A DNA stretch of 64,000 bases from an uncultured Acidimicrobiales bacterium (GTDB lineage: Bacteria; Actinomycetota; Acidimicrobiia; Acidimicrobiales; JANYDT01): contig CAVXQD010000002.1 in the NCBI GenBank assembly GCA_963763885.1, positions 304,389 through 368,388 on the forward strand, in the 5' to 3' direction. The stretch's first letter is position 1. Every line of letters starts with the position of its first letter. The translations under genes and the position numbers were made by a program. Below the pieces are notes generated by a model. The model was not told the DNA's origin, did not search any database, and saw only the letters and a list, made by a program, of their open reading frames with translations. Below, piece after piece: positions 21,234-29,298 of this stretch.

Positions 21234-22904
21234 ATGGACACGACTCTTGAATCGGTGATCGACCTTCGGGAGCGGTTGGCTCGTGAGCTTCAGTCCACGC
21301 CGGAACGGTTTGCAAATGATCGCGCATTGGCTGTTGCCCGAACTCGATATGAGTGGCAGCACATCCCCGGGCTTCCTCCATTTGCCAAACAAAACCCAGA
21401 TGCCCCAGAACTCCAGCAAAAGGGAAGGCTGGGTTATGACTACGCGATGAGCATCCTCAATGGTGCTCTCAGTGGGTTCGGTTGGGGGCGAGACAAAGGG
21501 GCCCGTAGCCATCGTTTGGAGCACTATTCCCACTTCTATCTTTGGCGAGACATGCCAAAGGTTGCGGCTCGATGGAAGACCGACGCGGAGTTTGCGCGGC
21601 AGCGTCTCAACGGCGTCAACCCGCTCCTCATCAAACGGATAGCCGCGATCCCCGAGAATTTCGCAGTTGACGATGAGCGTCTCCGCGGGGTGCTTCCAGC
21701 GGGCTTTTCGCTGACCCGGCTCCTTGGCGAAGGTCGCCTCTTCTTGTGTGACTGGGCAGCGCTCGACGAATGTCCCGTTGCATTTGGACGGTTCTTGTCG
21801 GCCCCGTTGGCACTGTTCTGGGTCAACGAAGACCGTGTGTTGATGCCGCTCGCTATTCAGCTCGCGCAGTCCATCACCACGGCCAAGGTGGTGTTTACGC
21901 CGGCGGATGAACCGTGGCTGTGGCTCACCGCTCGCACCCACGTGCAAGCGGCCGACGCAGCTCTCCACGAGATTGTGGAACACCTCGCAAAGACCCACCT
22001 GGTGATGGAAACGGTCTTTGTTGCGATGAGCCGCACGCTTCCGCCGCAGCATCCGGTGCACCAATTTTTAGCGCCTCATTTTGAAGGGACGCTGTTCATC
22101 AACCGTGGTGCACGCGACACCATGATTGCTCCCGAGGGTCCCATCGACCGATCCATCGCAGTTGGTACCGACGGGGCCTATTGGCTCATTGGGCAAGCCT
22201 GGTCGAAGTTTTCTTTCGCAGACCTGCACCTTCCAGAGGATCTGGCGTTGCGCGACGTCGCGGACCAAGACGGTCTGCCGGGTTACTACTACAGAGACGA
22301 CGCGCAGTTGTTGTGGCGGGCAATGGCTGCGTATACCGAAGAGGTTCTTCGCCACTTCTACGCCGACGACGCTTCAGTCGCGACGGACGAACAGCTGGCC
22401 GCATGGTGGCATGAACTGACTGCTGCCGATGCGGGCGGGATGGCAGGCCTCCCCGGCTCCGATGGACGGTTCCGAACGTTCGCAGAATTGCACAGGATGA
22501 TTACGGTCACGATGTTCACCGCAACGGTTCAACATTCCGCCGTCAACAACGGCCAGTACGACATCTTCGGCTTCATCCCAAACTCGCCCGGTGCGATGTT
22601 TTTGCCGCCGCCCACCACTCTCGACGTCAGCTCAGAAGGTCTGTTCACGTACGGTCTGCCGACGTTCACAGCGTCCGCAATCCAACTGAAGCTTGTGCAC
22701 CTCTTGTCAGCACCACCAATGTCTCGGCTGGGGGAGTACCGGCCAGAGTTCCTTCGGGAGCACCGTGAGGTCCGCGCTGCTGTTGACCGGTTTCTCGTTG
22801 CACTCGACGAAGTCGCGTTCCGCATAGACGAGCGCAATTCGCAGGTTGCCGTGCCGTACACGTACCTGCAGCCTGCCAACATCGCTAACTCGATCAGCGT
22901 GTAG
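21234..22904 (+). CDS. Lipoxygenase
   Basis: W..DAEFARQRLNGVNP, LMPLAIQL, WLTARTHV, HEIVEHLAKTHL, HPV..FL.PHF, YYYRDDA, QHSAVN, C-terminal YTYLQP..IANSISV. Confidence 0.96.
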   Translation: MDTTLESVIDLRERLARELQSTPERFANDRALAVARTRYEWQHIPGLPPFAKQNPDAPELQQKGRLGYDYAMSILNGALSGFGWGRDKGARSHRLEHYSHFYLWRDMPKVAARWKTDAEFARQRLNGVNPLLIKRIAAIPENFAVDDERLRGVLPAGFSLTRLLGEGRLFLCDWAALDECPVAFGRFLSAPLALFWVNEDRVLMPLAIQLAQSITTAKVVFTPADEPWLWLTARTHVQAADAALHEIVEHLAKTHLVMETVFVAMSRTLPPQHPVHQFLAPHFEGTLFINRGARDTMIAPEGPIDRSIAVGTDGAYWLIGQAWSKFSFADLHLPEDLALRDVADQDGLPGYYYRDDAQLLWRAMAAYTEEVLRHFYADDASVATDEQLAAWWHELTAADAGGMAGLPGSDGRFRTFAELHRMITVTMFTATVQHSAVNNGQYDIFGFIPNSPGAMFLPPPTTLDVSSEGLFTYGLPTFTASAIQLKLVHLLSAPPMSRLGEYRPEFLREHREVRAAVDRFLVALDEVAFRIDERNSQVAVPYTYLQPANIANSISV

Positions 22905-24171
22905 TGGACGCCGTCTGTATATCCCGCATATCACGGCCGCGCCCGTGTCTGATGGGTTGCTCCACCTCGGACTCAACTCCGATCCCTCCGTTCGCCACTC
23001 GGCCGCGCCCGCTTGGGATGGGTTGCTCCACCTCGGACTCAACTCCGATCCCTCCGTTCGCCACTCGGCCGCGCCCGGGTGGGATCGGCATCGGCGGAAT
23101 CGGATCCCAATCAGGTGCGTATCGAGAGTCTGGAAACTTGGCTGGCATGCCACGAAGCCTGTAGGAGAGCAGTCGTGCCTGTGCGGCGCGTCGTGTTGCC
23201 AACCGAAGGTTGTTGACCGAATGGGGGTCGTCGATGGAAACGCCGGTGGGCACCGGAAGCGATGGTGGGTGGTTTCCGATGTCGTACCAGGTGAGCATTG
23301 ATTCCTCGTAGTCCAGCGCTTCGGTGAGGGTCACTTCGGCCACGTCGTGCCATGGGGTGACGGTCTCGTCCCACTCGTACTGCGCGGTTACCCACGTGGG
23401 GTCTGGTCCCGGCGGCTTGCGCCGTGTCTGGATCTGGAAGCGGTACTGAATGGTGCCGTCGCCTTCCAGCCGAGCGCGTAGTTCGTCTTTCAGGTAGTTG
23501 CGTGTGCGTTGCTCGTCTGGCAGCGGGTTCTGGAACCAGTTGTGGTCTTTCCACCACTGTGGAAGCTCGCCTGAATCTGTCCCATCCCAACCTTCAGCTG
23601 GAATGAGACGGTACCGGCAGTAGTAGTACGTGCCCATGCGATCGACGAAACCGAAGCAGGTCTGGCTGTTGTAGCTGAGCTTCGAGAACGATTCAGGGTT
23701 TCGCCGGCTGCTGTCTCCGCCACCGAATACGGCTTGTGGGTTGGTCCTGAGGTAGTGGACGAACATCTTTCCGCGTTCGTTGGTCTTGCGAAATTGCCAA
23801 GTAGTGCGAGCGCTCCAGAACAGCCCGACGCGGCCGGTGTTCATCAGAACGTCGAAGGGTGAGGCGAAGCGCTCGTCTGAGAGTTTGAGCGCTGCCGACC
23901 GAACGCACATCTTGGCGTCATCTCGAAAGAGAACTGATCCGTGTCTGAGTCTGCAGGGAAACTCGCGGCCCGGCTGAAAGAAGTCGTGCTCTGGGAAGGT
24001 TGGATTGTCCACCACCCGAAACCTTCCCCGCGTGAGGGCGCCGTTCTCATGTGACATTCGTTTGCGTTGAACGAACGCGCTGATGGTGATGCCCACCGTC
24101 ATGACGGCGACGATTGCCTGTAGCTGCAGTCGGAGCAAACTGGCCCAGAGGTTGTCGAACATTGTGTTCAC
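22894..24171 (-). CDS. Catalase-related hemoprotein, allene oxide synthase/hydroperoxide lyase-like
   Basis: RMSH, FPEHDFFQPGREFPCRLRH, DD...RS..LK, MNTG, RR.P..F..L.Y.SQ, YCRYR, YRFQIQ, WDETVTPW closely parallel the coral AOS domain as recalled. Confidence 0.85.
   Translation of the reverse strand: MNTMFDNLWASLLRLQLQAIVAVMTVGITISAFVQRKRMSHENGALTRGRFRVVDNPTFPEHDFFQPGREFPCRLRHGSVLFRDDAKMCVRSAALKLSDERFASPFDVLMNTGRVGLFWSARTTWQFRKTNERGKMFVHYLRTNPQAVFGGGDSSRRNPESFSKLSYNSQTCFGFVDRMGTYYYCRYRLIPAEGWDGTDSGELPQWWKDHNWFQNPLPDEQRTRNYLKDELRARLEGDGTIQYRFQIQTRRKPPGPDPTWVTAQYEWDETVTPWHDVAEVTLTEALDYEESMLTWYDIGNHPPSLPVPTGVSIDDPHSVNNLRLATRRAAQARLLSYRLRGMPAKFPDSRYAPDWDPIPPMPIPPGRGRVANGGIGVESEVEQPIPSGRGRVANGGIGVESEVEQPIRHGRGRDMRDIQTASTTR
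22934..23077 (-). repeat. MIRU-like 66-bp tandem repeat (2.2 copies) read in frame within the AOS-like C-terminus
   Basis: cggccgcgcccg at 22934, 23000 and 23066; peptide GRGRVANGGIGVESEVEQPI occurs twice. Confidence 0.92.
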
Positions 24172-24559: not shown

Positions 24560-25783
24560 TCAGGTAGGGAACTTCACCGGGATGTTGCGAGGGCCTCGGA
24601 CCTGTCCACCGGCCCACGTGACAGCGGCATCATCACGGAGTTCGAACTCCGGAATCAGCGCCAGCCACTCGTCGACCGCCACCGTGAGTTCCATACGCGC
24701 AAGGTTTGAACCGGCGCATCGATGAATACCAGCACCGAAGGCCACGTGGCGGTTGATCTCTCGGTCGAGGATCACTTTGTCTGCATCTGGGAACTGTTGT
24801 GGATCTCGGTTTGCCGCGGGGAAGTTGAGGATGACTCTGTCTCCTGCGTGCATCGGGCACCCCTGCACCTCGATGTCCTCGGTGACGATTCGGGCCATGG
24901 TGACTGGCGAGTACGCCCGCAGCAGTTCTTCAATGGCGAACGGGCGGATCTCCGGTTCATTCACCATCCTGGCCCGGTCTTCGGGGTGCGTTGCGAGGTG
25001 CCACAGGGAAGAACCGATGGCCGACCAGGTGGTGTCAACCCCTGCGATGAGTGTGAGTGCGACGGTACCGAGGATGTGGGGGTCTGGGACTGGTGCGCCG
25101 TCAACCTCCGCGCGCAGCAACGCGCTGATGAGGTCTTCGCCATCGCCGCCACGGCGCTCGTCCATGCAGGCCATGAAATAGGCGGCAACCTCTTTCGTTG
25201 CCTGCTGGCGGCGAGGCCCATCGTTGGCAAACTCCAGAATGTCCCGGACCCAGCCGGTGAACGTGTCTGAATCTGACTCTGGGACTCCGAGGACCTTGCC
25301 GATGATGCGCACCGGAATCTGCTGGGCGTAGTCGGCTGCCGCGTCGGCCTGGCCCTTTTCAATAAACCCGCGGAGCAATTGGCGACACAGGTCACGGGTG
25401 TAGGTCTCGTAGAAGTCGACCTGCTTCGGTGAGAACCATGGCAAGAGAAGCCGGCGGGACCATCCGTGAACGGGAGGGTCTGCGGAGATCGGAGGAACAC
25501 CGGCCGAGAGGATGCCGCCCTGCCCTTGGTTCAACGGGGGAGGTGGGATCACGGCAACACTTCGTGAGCTGAAGTGCTCGACGTCGCGTGCGATGGCTGT
25601 GACGGATTCGTAGGTAGTTGGCAGCCAGGAACCGTCGTAGCGGTCAGAGTGGGCAATGGGGCAGTCTCCGCGCAACTCATCCCAGATGGGAAACGGATTA
25701 CCGATGTAACGCGGGTCGAACACGTCGTAGTCAGTCGCCCAGTCGTGGGCGCCGGTTGGCGCTACCTCGTTGTTTGCGTTCAT
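24560..25783 (-). CDS. Cytochrome P450
   Basis: AGVDTT I-helix, EELLR, heme motif FGAGIHRCAG; ATGA overlap with the upstream TauD-family gene. Confidence 0.95.
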   Translation of the reverse strand: MNANNEVAPTGAHDWATDYDVFDPRYIGNPFPIWDELRGDCPIAHSDRYDGSWLPTTYESVTAIARDVEHFSSRSVAVIPPPPLNQGQGGILSAGVPPISADPPVHGWSRRLLLPWFSPKQVDFYETYTRDLCRQLLRGFIEKGQADAAADYAQQIPVRIIGKVLGVPESDSDTFTGWVRDILEFANDGPRRQQATKEVAAYFMACMDERRGGDGEDLISALLRAEVDGAPVPDPHILGTVALTLIAGVDTTWSAIGSSLWHLATHPEDRARMVNEPEIRPFAIEELLRAYSPVTMARIVTEDIEVQGCPMHAGDRVILNFPAANRDPQQFPDADKVILDREINRHVAFGAGIHRCAGSNLARMELTVAVDEWLALIPEFELRDDAAVTWAGGQVRGPRNIPVKFPT

Positions 25784-26613
25784 CGTGCGTTGCTCCCTGC
25801 GTAGAAGGGCTGTTCGCCCTGCGTGGTGACCCGCCACCCCGAACGGGTCTCTGGGAAATAGTCCCAGCTGGCGTGGTGTTGCACGCACCTGTTGTCCCAC
25901 AGCGTGATGGTGTTGGGCTCCCACCGTATGCGGCACTGGAACTCGACTCCCAATGCAATGTGGTCAAACAGCATCTTGAGCAGCGCTGAGCTTTCTTCCT
26001 TCGTAACTCCTTTGATGCGGTCCGTGAACCCTGCGTTGACGTAAAGCGCGGTTCGGCCCGTATGGGGGTGGGTGCGCGCAACGGGGTGAACGTTGTTGGG
26101 GTAGTCGATTTCCGCCTTGCTCTTGTACTGGCCGCGCCACGGAAGGTCGCCGGCGTGGACGGCCTCACGTTCTGCAAGGAATGCGCGCATAGGGGCCGAT
26201 AGCGCTTCCCAAGCCTGATACATCGATGCAAACGCTGTGTCTCCGCCGCACGACGGCGTGGTTTCGATTCGCAACATGGAGATGGCTGGCGGCTGGAGGT
26301 CGCACGACACATCCGTGTGCCACCCTTCACCTGCGGTGTAGCGGGAGTTGGCATCGGTGTGGATTCGCAATGCTTCGGGGTGCTCTGCATCTGCGTAAGC
26401 CGGATGAACGTGAAGGGGGCCGAAGCGGCGTCCCAGCTCGATTTGTTCATCGAGGGTCATGTGCTGGTCTCGCACCGCCACGGCGCCGCGCTCGGCTACG
26501 AGGAGCTTGATCTCATCGATTCCGTCCTGGTTGAGCGACCGCAAGTCGACGCCGGTAAGCACCGTGCCTACGTATCGGTTGAGATCTTGTCGGGTTGCGG
26601 TCAACGAACTCAT
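25780..26613 (-). CDS. TauD/TfdA-family Fe(II)/2-oxoglutarate dioxygenase
   Basis: WHTDVS, GGDT, HPVARTHP, WDNRCVQH. Confidence 0.93.
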   Translation of the reverse strand: MSSLTATRQDLNRYVGTVLTGVDLRSLNQDGIDEIKLLVAERGAVAVRDQHMTLDEQIELGRRFGPLHVHPAYADAEHPEALRIHTDANSRYTAGEGWHTDVSCDLQPPAISMLRIETTPSCGGDTAFASMYQAWEALSAPMRAFLAEREAVHAGDLPWRGQYKSKAEIDYPNNVHPVARTHPHTGRTALYVNAGFTDRIKGVTKEESSALLKMLFDHIALGVEFQCRIRWEPNTITLWDNRCVQHHASWDYFPETRSGWRVTTQGEQPFYAGSNAR

Positions 26614-26643
26614 GATGTCCCTCGGTTCCGGCGAAAGTTGCAA

Positions 26644-26687
26644 GTGGCACTCGACAGTGCCACCGTTGGCACTCTAGAGTGCCAACG
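26644..26687. promoter_or_regulatory. Tandem TetR operators overlapping a divergent promoter
   Basis: gtggcact-cgac-agtgccac (26644-26663) and perfect 24-bp palindrome cgttggcactctagagtgccaacg (26664-26687) containing the -10 box TAGAGT. Confidence 0.85.
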
Positions 26688-27409
26688 TGAACTTGTCGAG
26701 CCCCGATACCGTGCTCACCCCTGGGCGGGTTGGTTTCGTTGCGCTGGTAGAACCTGCTGCCGACGATGCCCGAACGGTGGTCCGTCGGCGAATCCTGCGT
26801 GCGGCTCGCCATGTGCTTGCCACACAAGGTCTCGGCGTCTCAATGGAAGAGGTTGCGGTCGCGGCCGGCATGGGGCGTCGCACGCTCTTTCGATACTTCG
26901 ACACCCACGAGCGCCTCATCGCTGAAGCGCTGAATTCCTCGTTGGACTGGTACGACGTGCAGGTCTCGCAGGCCACCACTGCAGATCAACCGCTACACGA
27001 ATGGTTGATTGGGCTTACCTCGCGGGTGCATGCAATCCATCAGTCCGCAGGTCTCGCGTTGTGGCAGCTGGCTGCGTCGGACGATGCCGACCTCGCGGAC
27101 GCCTTTGCGGCGGTCAATCAGCGTCGGCGTCTGGCCCGGCGGACCGCAACCGAGGCGATTGCCTCAGCCGCGTGGATTCGCGCTGAAGGATCGGGGCCCT
27201 GTCCGGAGGCCGTGGTGGATGTATGTGCACTCACTATCTCTTCATTCGCAAGCCACTCGATGATTGAAGATTTCGGCAGAGACCCGGTGGTCGTTGCGCG
27301 TTCATCTGCCGCCATCCTTGAGGCGTTTCTTCTTGCCCAAGTGGCAGAAGCGTCACGTAACAAGCCGTCGAGCGTTGTTGCGTCGACGCCGCGAAAGAAG
27401 CGCTCATGA
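26687..27409 (+). CDS. TetR/AcrR-family transcriptional regulator
   Basis: RILRAA..., SMEEVAVAAGMGRRTLFRYF HTH. Confidence 0.92.
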   Translation: MNLSSPDTVLTPGRVGFVALVEPAADDARTVVRRRILRAARHVLATQGLGVSMEEVAVAAGMGRRTLFRYFDTHERLIAEALNSSLDWYDVQVSQATTADQPLHEWLIGLTSRVHAIHQSAGLALWQLAASDDADLADAFAAVNQRRRLARRTATEAIASAAWIRAEGSGPCPEAVVDVCALTISSFASHSMIEDFGRDPVVVARSSAAILEAFLLAQVAEASRNKPSSVVASTPRKKRS

Positions 27410-28395
27410 GCGAAGCCGAAGCAGTTGTGATGTACCAGCACGGTGGGCCCAATGTTCTGTCGATGGAACAACTGCAGGTGCCCCATCCCGGGACAGGTGA
27501 GGTCACCGTTGCCCACAGTGCTGTTGGCTTGAACTTCGCTGACACCTATTTCCGTTCGGGGTTGTATCCGGTGAAATTGCCGAGCGGAATAGGAGTCGAA
27601 GCAGCAGGCACCATTGTCGAAGTTGGCCCCAATGCCTCTGGATTCCAAGTGGGCGACCGAGTCACGTACACGGGCAGCCCTCTGGGGGCGTACAGCACCG
27701 TGCGAACCATGCCGGTCGGCTCGCTCATCGCACTGCCCGATGCCATTGGATTCGACACCGCAGCAGCGATGACGATGCGCGGCCTCACCTCGGCCTACCT
27801 GCTCCGGCGAATCTGGCCGCTTGCATCTGGCGACACGGTTCTGTTCCACGCAGCTGCCGGCGGAGTAGGTCTGATCTTTTGTCAGTGGGCCGCGCTCCTT
27901 GGCATACGCGTCATCGGGACAGTGTCAAACGCAGAGAAAGCTGGCATCGCTCGTGCGCACGGTTGCGCCGAGGTGATCGACACTTCGGCTGACGATGTTG
28001 TGGGGCGTGTCAAAGACCTCACTGATGGAGCGGGAGTGCGTGTTGTGTACGACGGGGTTGGTCGCGACACGTTCGACACGTCCATGAAGTGCCTCGGTCG
28101 CAGGGCCTTGTTGGTTTGTCTTGGCACCGCGTCTGGGCCGACGCCGCCCATTGAGACCCCTGATCTCGTGCGACGACGATCTGCATATGTCACGCGCCCA
28201 GCGTTGGCCGACTACATCGCAGACCCAGCGGAACGTGCAGCCCTGGTGGAAGAGCTGTTCGACCATGTTTCGGCTAGCCGTATCCGGGTGGAGATCAACC
28301 AGCGTTACCGTTTGGCAGATGCCGTACGCGCACATACAGACCTTGAATCCCGGGTCACAACCGGTTCGTCCATCTTCGACTTGTCCCTGGCCTGA
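27406..28395 (+). CDS. qor: NADPH:quinone oxidoreductase (zeta-crystallin/MDR family)
   Basis: GLNFADTYFRSGLY, HAAAGGVG, VVYDGVG, TTGS. Confidence 0.9.
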   Translation: MSEAEAVVMYQHGGPNVLSMEQLQVPHPGTGEVTVAHSAVGLNFADTYFRSGLYPVKLPSGIGVEAAGTIVEVGPNASGFQVGDRVTYTGSPLGAYSTVRTMPVGSLIALPDAIGFDTAAAMTMRGLTSAYLLRRIWPLASGDTVLFHAAAGGVGLIFCQWAALLGIRVIGTVSNAEKAGIARAHGCAEVIDTSADDVVGRVKDLTDGAGVRVVYDGVGRDTFDTSMKCLGRRALLVCLGTASGPTPPIETPDLVRRRSAYVTRPALADYIADPAERAALVEELFDHVSASRIRVEINQRYRLADAVRAHTDLESRVTTGSSIFDLSLA

Positions 28396-28425
28396 ACAGC
28401 CTGATTAGACCGCAGGAGTTACACC

Positions 28426-29298
28426 ATGACAACCTCCCCCACACGGCGCATGTTGAATGTGGATCAACTAGTGCCAGCCATCGGCGCTGAGGTCAGCAAC
28501 ATCGATCTGGCCGAGGCGGGTCGAAACGACGACTTGTTTGGTGAGATTCGGCAACTGCTGTTGAAACACAAGGTGCTGTTCTTCCGTGATCAGGCGTTGC
28601 CTCCCGGGGATCAGGTTGCGTTCGCAGAGAAGTTCGGTGCCTTGGAGGCGCACCCCATTGCGCCCTCGCACCCAGACTTCCCTACGTTGTTGTTGATTCA
28701 TCGCCAAGCCGAGCGCAGCACCTATGAGAACGTTTGGCACAGCGACGCGTCGTTCCGGTCAGAACCTCCCATGGGAGCGGTGCTTAAGTGCGACGAGTGC
28801 CCATCGGTTGGTGGAGACACCATGTGGGCCAACATGGCACTCGCCTATGACCGGCTTCCGGATCGAATCAAGGAGCGCATCGGTGATCTCCTTGCCCAGC
28901 ACAGCCTTGAGCAGTCGTTTGGAGGTGCAATGTCGCCAGAGAAGCGGGCCGCGCTGGTCGCAGAGAACCCGCCGTCCAACCACCCGGTAGTGCGAACGCA
29001 TCCGGAAACTGGCGAGAAGATCCTCTATGTGAACCAAGGGTTCGCCACCCACTTTGTGAACTTCCAACGGTTCGACCGTATTCGGGTGGGTCAAGACTTC
29101 ACGATGGAATCCAACCACCTCATGAACTACTTGCTCAGTCAGGCCGCCATCCCCGAATACCAAGTGCGCATACGTTGGCGTCCGGGCACGGTGGCAGTTT
29201 GGGACAACCGGGTGTGCCAGCACTACGCGGTGCACGACTATTACCCCAGTCCCCGCAAAATGGCCCGGGCCACCATCACGGGCACCCGCCCGGAGTAG
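28426..29298 (+). CDS. TauD/TfdA-family Fe(II)/2-oxoglutarate dioxygenase (second)
   Basis: WHSDAS, GGDT, HPVVRTHPETG, WDNRVCQHYA. Confidence 0.93.
   Translation: MTTSPTRRMLNVDQLVPAIGAEVSNIDLAEAGRNDDLFGEIRQLLLKHKVLFFRDQALPPGDQVAFAEKFGALEAHPIAPSHPDFPTLLLIHRQAERSTYENVWHSDASFRSEPPMGAVLKCDECPSVGGDTMWANMALAYDRLPDRIKERIGDLLAQHSLEQSFGGAMSPEKRAALVAENPPSNHPVVRTHPETGEKILYVNQGFATHFVNFQRFDRIRVGQDFTMESNHLMNYLLSQAAIPEYQVRIRWRPGTVAVWDNRVCQHYAVHDYYPSPRKMARATITGTRPE

Follow-up and report, generated by a model that had tools for sequence, protein, structure and literature searches.

Genes and features of the locus

The DNA analyzed here, hereafter the window, is a 64,000-nt stretch from an uncultured Acidimicrobiales bacterium. 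Three adjacent genes, all within the window, encode a catalase-related protein that resembles coral allene oxide synthase (cAOS), a lipoxygenase, and a STAND ATPase with a class III nucleotide cyclase domain (Table 1). The likely start of the cAOS-like gene is the ATG at 24162, which gives the N terminus MFDNLW and matches the orthologues, and the gene is single-copy in the 4.98-Mb, 93.6%-complete genome. The lipoxygenase of the window is conserved up to its last residue. Beside these genes lie a cytochrome P450 (FGAGIHRCAG), two TauD-family dioxygenases, a TetR regulator and a zinc alcohol dehydrogenase (24560-26643 on the minus strand and 26687-29298 on the plus strand). The P450 and the adjacent TauD gene were not found near the cAOS-like gene in 80 related loci and therefore look like a separate cluster. 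Other genes further out in the window are housekeeping genes.

Table 1. Coordinates of the genes, motifs and repeat discussed in the text (positions in the window; residue numbers of the cAOS-like protein, with coral cAOS equivalents in brackets)
Feature	Position	Strand	Remarks
STAND ATPase: class III nucleotide cyclase + NB-ARC protein	18447..~21150	-	Divergent from lipoxygenase gene
Lipoxygenase, about 556 aa	21234..22904	+	Convergent with cAOS-like gene; start chosen by alignment with relatives
cAOS-like (catalase-related) gene	22894..24171	-	425 aa as ORF; conserved domain is residues 1-366
66-bp repeat unit, 2.3 copies	22934..23085		Interspersed repeat of the source genome
Proximal helix, residues 318-340	23152..23220	-	R323 (R349), T326/R327 at the place of the Tyr, R333 (R360), Y337
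T326-R327, site of the missing axial Tyr	23191..23196	-	From the 97-row family alignment and the profile-profile alignment
N111, distal Asn (N137)	23839..23841	-	97/97 family members
R76, haem-propionate Arg (R102)	23944..23946	-	97/97 family members
Distal motif R38-M39-S40-H41 (R64-A65-T66-H67)	24049..24060	-	Met-Ser-His marks the Tyr-less clade

In the cAOS-like gene, the repeat in Table 1 has taken the place of the ~10 terminal native codons and adds about 59 aa to the ORF, which now reaches into the lipoxygenase gene at its 3′ end and overlaps the stop codon of that gene by 11 nt. Same-genus orthologues of the cAOS-like gene end normally. The 66-bp unit has 64 matching places in the genome (itself included), often as tandem arrays, and reaches 100-600x summed contig depth in metagenome runs. 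The peptide that it encodes also occurs in two other ORFs of the same genome (P0100 and P0103).

Fold of the cAOS-like protein

A phmmer search of the PDB matched the protein to the allene oxide synthase of the coral Plexaura homomalla (1u5u, E 4.8e-49), and the cAOS-lipoxygenase fusion 3dy5 was matched at E 5.7e-48. An AlphaFold2 (AF2) model built on 97 relatives had a mean pLDDT of 95.7 and a pTM of 0.93. Compared by Foldseek, this model aligned with 1u5u_A over 326 columns (E 4.9e-33, TM 0.83, rmsd 1.7 Å, 32% identity), so the structure prediction that had been proposed on the basis of the letters alone returned the coral cAOS fold. The next matches, at ~1e-15 (TMq 0.57-0.63), were true catalases and the 33-kDa catalase-related protein of M. 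avium subsp. paratuberculosis (3e4w), with which the predicted model shares the core beta-barrel/helical catalase fold. A Pfam search, however, returned no family even at E 10, and the threshold of the Catalase model (PF00199) was not reached. Unlike monofunctional haem catalases, the window protein is also much shorter, lacks the Tyr ligand and carries a distal Ser-His pair; the distal pair of catalases is Val-His.

The proximal helix lacks the axial tyrosine

Catalase-type haem chemistry is defined by an axial tyrosinate, a ligand believed to govern how both catalases and coral allene oxide synthase react. In coral cAOS the proximal ligand is Y353, and R349, Y353 and R360 are spaced +4/+11, according to PMC5617202. 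Residues 320-333 of the window protein read NNLRLATRRAAQAR. The phmmer alignment pairs coral R349 with R323 and coral Y353 with R327, and the profile-profile alignment with Tyr-bearing relatives puts a one-residue gap directly after R323, with the Tyr opposite T326. In both the pairwise and the profile-profile alignment, the axial Tyr is absent from the window protein.

R323 and R333 are 10 residues apart compared to 11 in the coral enzyme, and the Tyr-bearing relatives carry an extra residue in the helix, often as Tyr-Pro; the window helix is therefore one residue shorter. An earlier, sequence-only reading of this DNA had drawn attention to both features, the loss of the Tyr from the R-x3-Y helix and a helix shorter by one residue, and both stand. 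It had placed them at 23173-23208, which covers residues 322-333 and is right to within 6 nt.

We looked for a substitute ligand in the 97-row family alignment. Position 326 is Ser, Gly, Ala or Thr in 96 of the 97 rows, position 327 is variable (Ile in 26, Lys in 21, Glu in 13, Arg in 9, Asp in 5, and others), and position 328 is Trp in 63. No universally conserved replacement ligand was found on the proximal helix in this alignment. H325, Y/H321 and H317 were considered and rejected as universal ligands because each is confined to sub-clades.

The sequence-only reading had also named the Tyr of the LLSY motif, Y337, as a residue that might occupy the axial site, and its retention in 88 of the 97 family members is in favor of such a takeover. 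We nevertheless regard this as very improbable. Y337 lies 14 residues after R323 and four after R333 in one continuous predicted helix (318-340), whereas the coral ligand comes seven residues before the propionate Arg (PMC5617202). Neither sequence alignment places Y337 at the axial site. Moreover, Tyr is the commonest residue at this position in the Tyr-bearing relatives too (47%), suggesting that Y337 is an older structural residue.

The helix is neither an assembly error nor a sign of decay

Two public runs, one of them possibly the source sample, yielded contigs over 23058-23222 and 23033-23217 that match the window without any difference or gap; the 3-bp deletion error that a read check might have exposed is not seen at the helix. 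Outside the repeat the contigs are of low depth, and none of the listed pieces extends over the entire cAOS-like gene. Orthologues were present in 3 of the 40 related genomes searched, two from the same genus (92-93% identity) and one from another genus of the family (85%). All three carry LRLATRRAAQAR or LRLATKRAAQAR, the same helix save for one Arg/Lys change. Against the two same-genus orthologues, dN/dS was 0.035 and 0.041, at a dS of ~1.18 that is near saturation.

Because the contigs match exactly, the orthologues share the helix and dN/dS is ~0.04, the Tyr-less helix is not an assembly artefact. The rewriting of the 3′ end of the ORF by the repeat insertion would be in keeping with a decaying pseudogene, but the overwritten part is confined to the final ~10 codons, which follow PIPPG and are not conserved. 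With independent contigs and orthologues agreeing on the helix, and with the Tyr absent from 124 of the 125 members of the clade described below, we consider a sequencing or assembly error or a decaying pseudogene exceedingly improbable.

Loss of the tyrosine is a clade-wide trait

Relatives were pooled from a word-index search (102 matches) and from the best 150 of the 447 matches returned, at E 0.001 or better, by an exhaustive search of 1.84 billion representatives. The motif and Tyr counts are based on the 215 pooled relatives whose distal strand and helix were both alignable. Tyr at R+4 is absent from 124/125 relatives with a distal Met-Ser-His motif and present in 46/59 of those with x-Thr-His, some of the other 13 being alignment offsets. 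In the family alignment, R-x3-Y occurs in only 2 of the 97 rows (P0098 and the distant P0102), so the comparison of homologues suggested by the sequence-only reading finds the Tyr loss conserved.

A quick maximum-likelihood tree (LG+G4, no mixture model) was computed from 118 of the 198 rows covering the helix, plus the query, with every third Met-Ser-His row kept. In this tree, the Met-Ser-His sequences group together as a single clade (SH-aLRT 99) that sits within Tyr-bearing lines. Given this topology, the simplest reading is that the Tyr was lost once, in the ancestor of the Met-Ser-His clade, probably by a one-residue deletion in the helix. P0098, which has a Tyr at R+4 inside the Tyr-less clade, represents either a regain or a retention. 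Two sequences of the Met-Ser-His type, L088 and L096, have the helix RQFAVYSIHARR, with a Tyr at R+5 instead of R+4.

The Met-Ser-His family is found in at least six phyla. According to record titles, the best 80 of 152 loci from species-representative genomes belong to Actinomycetota, Pseudomonadota, Bacteroidota, Methylomirabilota, Verrucomicrobiales, Planctomycetaceae and others. The nearest sequence neighbors outside the clade are Tyr-bearing x-Thr-His relatives, bacterial and other (e.g., P0136, P0125 and P0141; catalase-lipoxygenase fusions included), which hhalign matches at probability 100, E 5.5e-92 and 36% identity. Unlike the Met-Ser-His clade, these relatives retain R-x3-Y-x6-R.

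The rest of the haem pocket is conserved

Thr beside the distal His is a hallmark of cAOS-type enzymes. The window protein has Ser40-His41 instead of the Thr-His pair (Ser in 96/97 family rows), which retains the hydroxyl, and Met in place of coral Ala65. For coral cAOS, PMC5617202 gives R64, R102 and R360 as haem-coordinating and H67, T66 and N137 as distal residues. The three haem-coordinating arginines are all present in the window protein, as R38, R76 and R333, and the Arg partner of the Tyr (coral R349) is kept as R323 despite the loss of the Tyr itself. R38, H41, R76, N111 and R333 are each kept in 97/97 family rows, and M39, S40 and R323 in 96/97. That the distal His and Asn are kept, with Ser for Thr66, had been recognized from the sequence alone, and the phmmer alignment with 1u5u agrees (H41, N111 and S40).

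We extended the comparison to the 33 positions with at least 85% conservation across 31 Tyr-bearing relatives and examined the same positions in 124 Tyr-less ones. At 29 of the 33, the Tyr-less proteins are equally conserved and have the same residue. The four exceptions are the Tyr and the Thr-to-Ser change, which are expected since the groups were defined by those residues, and two positions that are still 74-75% kept. The clade has gains of its own as well: Met39, Asn43, Asn225, Lys228 and a conserved C-terminal tail (FPDSRxxPDWxxxPPMxxPP) that is longer than that of coral cAOS. Met39 occupies the position of cHPL Pro65, which PMC5617202 places 'in the haem region'.

We infer that this conservation of the pocket is the pattern to be expected if a haem-like ligand is still bound; short of being proof, it would be hard to square with simple loss of the cofactor. 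The sequence-only reading had listed three options, namely alternative ligation, a haem-free isomerase and an oxylipin-binding pseudoenzyme. They remain the right set, except that 'pseudoenzyme' in the sense of decay does not fit a dN/dS of 0.035-0.041 and the 29 shared positions.

Association with lipoxygenase and STAND signalling genes

We examined gene neighborhoods in the best 80 of 152 loci. A lipoxygenase, counted with six seed queries, lies within 5 kb in 57/80 loci, and a large STAND/signalling protein (with Ser/Thr kinase, AAA_16/NB-ARC, GAF and cyclase domains) in 67/80; both are present in 48/80. No lipoxygenase was found within 5 kb in the other 23/80, where a large signalling gene often occupies the flank. 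Contig ends truncate many of the 80 loci, or a 1600-aa signalling gene takes up the flank.

As in the coral enzyme, the lipoxygenase is in many cases part of the same protein: many members of the Met-Ser-His clade are fused to a lipoxygenase in the same N-to-C order as in 3dy5. At least 14 of the loci are single cAOS-like-lipoxygenase ORFs, and fused Met-Ser-His cAOS-like-lipoxygenase proteins are also among the protein-search matches. One Tyr-bearing relative, the 1255-aa P0148, has an N-terminal acyl-CoA-binding (ACBP) domain followed by cAOS-like and lipoxygenase domains.

Two further differences from coral cAOS are the bacterial origin of the window protein and its link to a STAND signalling gene. 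Among metagenome loci sampled independently, a signalling gene stands beside 7/10 Met-Ser-His loci compared to 0/19 Tyr-bearing loci, in which no STAND, cyclase or kinase neighbor was seen; this contrast is weak because 14 of the 19 Tyr-bearing loci resemble intron-split eukaryotic genes and come from a few samples. The 4-row alignment used to obtain a Tyr-bearing control gave 30 loci, mostly probably eukaryotic. No PADLOC model matches the three module proteins of the window, and the signalling proteins of the relatives match generic kinase and cyclase models only.

We also co-folded the cAOS-like protein with the neighboring lipoxygenase. The median score was 0.48 (runs 0.43, 0.58 and 0.48), compared to 0.00 for the best control. 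The mark applied is reached by 116/157 solved complexes and by 2/215 mismatches; both of these mismatches, and only 18 of the 157 solved complexes, scored 0.60 or below. Contact agreement between the runs is at least 0%, and the partner has a pLDDT of at least 88. Co-folding thus weakly suggests a complex between the two proteins; since 3dy5 is a solved complex of the same kind, the pass may reflect memorization.

Candidate roles of the Tyr-less protein

We give an even chance to the reading that the window protein is a working enzyme of the Met-Ser-His clade that would hold haem without the canonical ligand, act on lipoxygenase hydroperoxides and feed STAND signalling. The hydrophobic pocket, together with the three arginines that contact the propionates, would keep haem in place. 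As its fifth ligand the iron would have a non-canonical one, perhaps water or hydroxide held by the conserved R323 in the cavity left by the Tyr; alternatively, M39 or H41 of the changed distal strand could serve, or a ligand from outside the cAOS-like protein. The hydroperoxide made by the neighboring lipoxygenase would be taken and rearranged at this haem with its unorthodox ligand. The product, or the state of the enzyme, might then be sensed by the cyclase/kinase-bearing STAND ATPase and passed on as cyclic nucleotide or phosphorylation, in which case the lipoxygenase, cAOS-like and STAND genes would make up a three-gene oxylipin signalling module.

The main rival reading is a haem-free protein whose pocket binds a fatty-acid hydroperoxide or oxylipin directly, acting either as a cofactor-less isomerase or as a ligand-binding sensor subunit through which the STAND ATPase would detect lipoxygenase products. 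Throughout the clade the haem-ligating residue is missing and the position it should occupy varies, PF00199 is unmatched at E 10, and the conserved arginines could bind another anionic ligand, e.g., a fatty-acid carboxylate. The tie to STAND, cyclase and kinase proteins (67/80 loci, and 7/10 compared to 0/19 in the metagenome sample, a poor comparison) is also in keeping with a sensor, and some members of a second Tyr-less clade lack the distal His or Asn as well. Set against this, conservation of the three propionate arginines, of the distal His and Asn and of R323, the Arg that partners the Tyr, equals or exceeds that in the Tyr-bearing relatives, which is hard to explain without a haem-like ligand and counts against a haem-free protein. 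We therefore regard the haem-free reading as possible but somewhat unlikely.

A further variant of haem binding, which we would call a long shot, is a natural 'cavity' haem enzyme. Haem would be bound without any protein-derived axial ligand, and Arg323 and the small residue at 326 would line the pocket. The fifth ligand would be supplied in trans, by a small anionic metabolite or by a side chain of the lipoxygenase or STAND protein. Its arrival might switch hydroperoxide conversion, to be read out as cyclic-nucleotide or kinase signalling.

A large, conserved bacterial family that keeps the pocket and not the ligand is a natural experiment on the role of that ligand. If haem is bound, the family would represent a new ligation state for the catalase fold, and we know of no catalase-fold haem enzyme without the Tyr that could serve as a precedent. 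If haem is not bound, a haem pocket would have been re-used for lipid binding. To our knowledge, the role of most bacterial lipoxygenases is an open question; the family forms the enzymatic core of a widespread bacterial module of lipoxygenase, cAOS-like protein and STAND cyclase/kinase, whose three genes give direct experimental access to bacterial oxylipin signalling. Neither a Tyr-less cAOS-like family nor a lipoxygenase/STAND module turned up in the full-text literature searched, subscription journals lying outside its coverage.

A second Tyr-less lineage

The tree contains a second, separate and almost Tyr-less clade of 28 rows that branches elsewhere (P0160, P0183, P0205, P0172 and others). 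Here the cAOS-like domain is C-terminal in proteins of 600-1100 aa, Glu often stands in for the Arg that partners the Tyr, and some members have lost the distal His or Asn as well. P0160 consists of two cNMP-binding domains, a patatin phospholipase and a cAOS-like domain, an architecture that would link cyclic nucleotides, lipid release and the cAOS-like fold in one chain.
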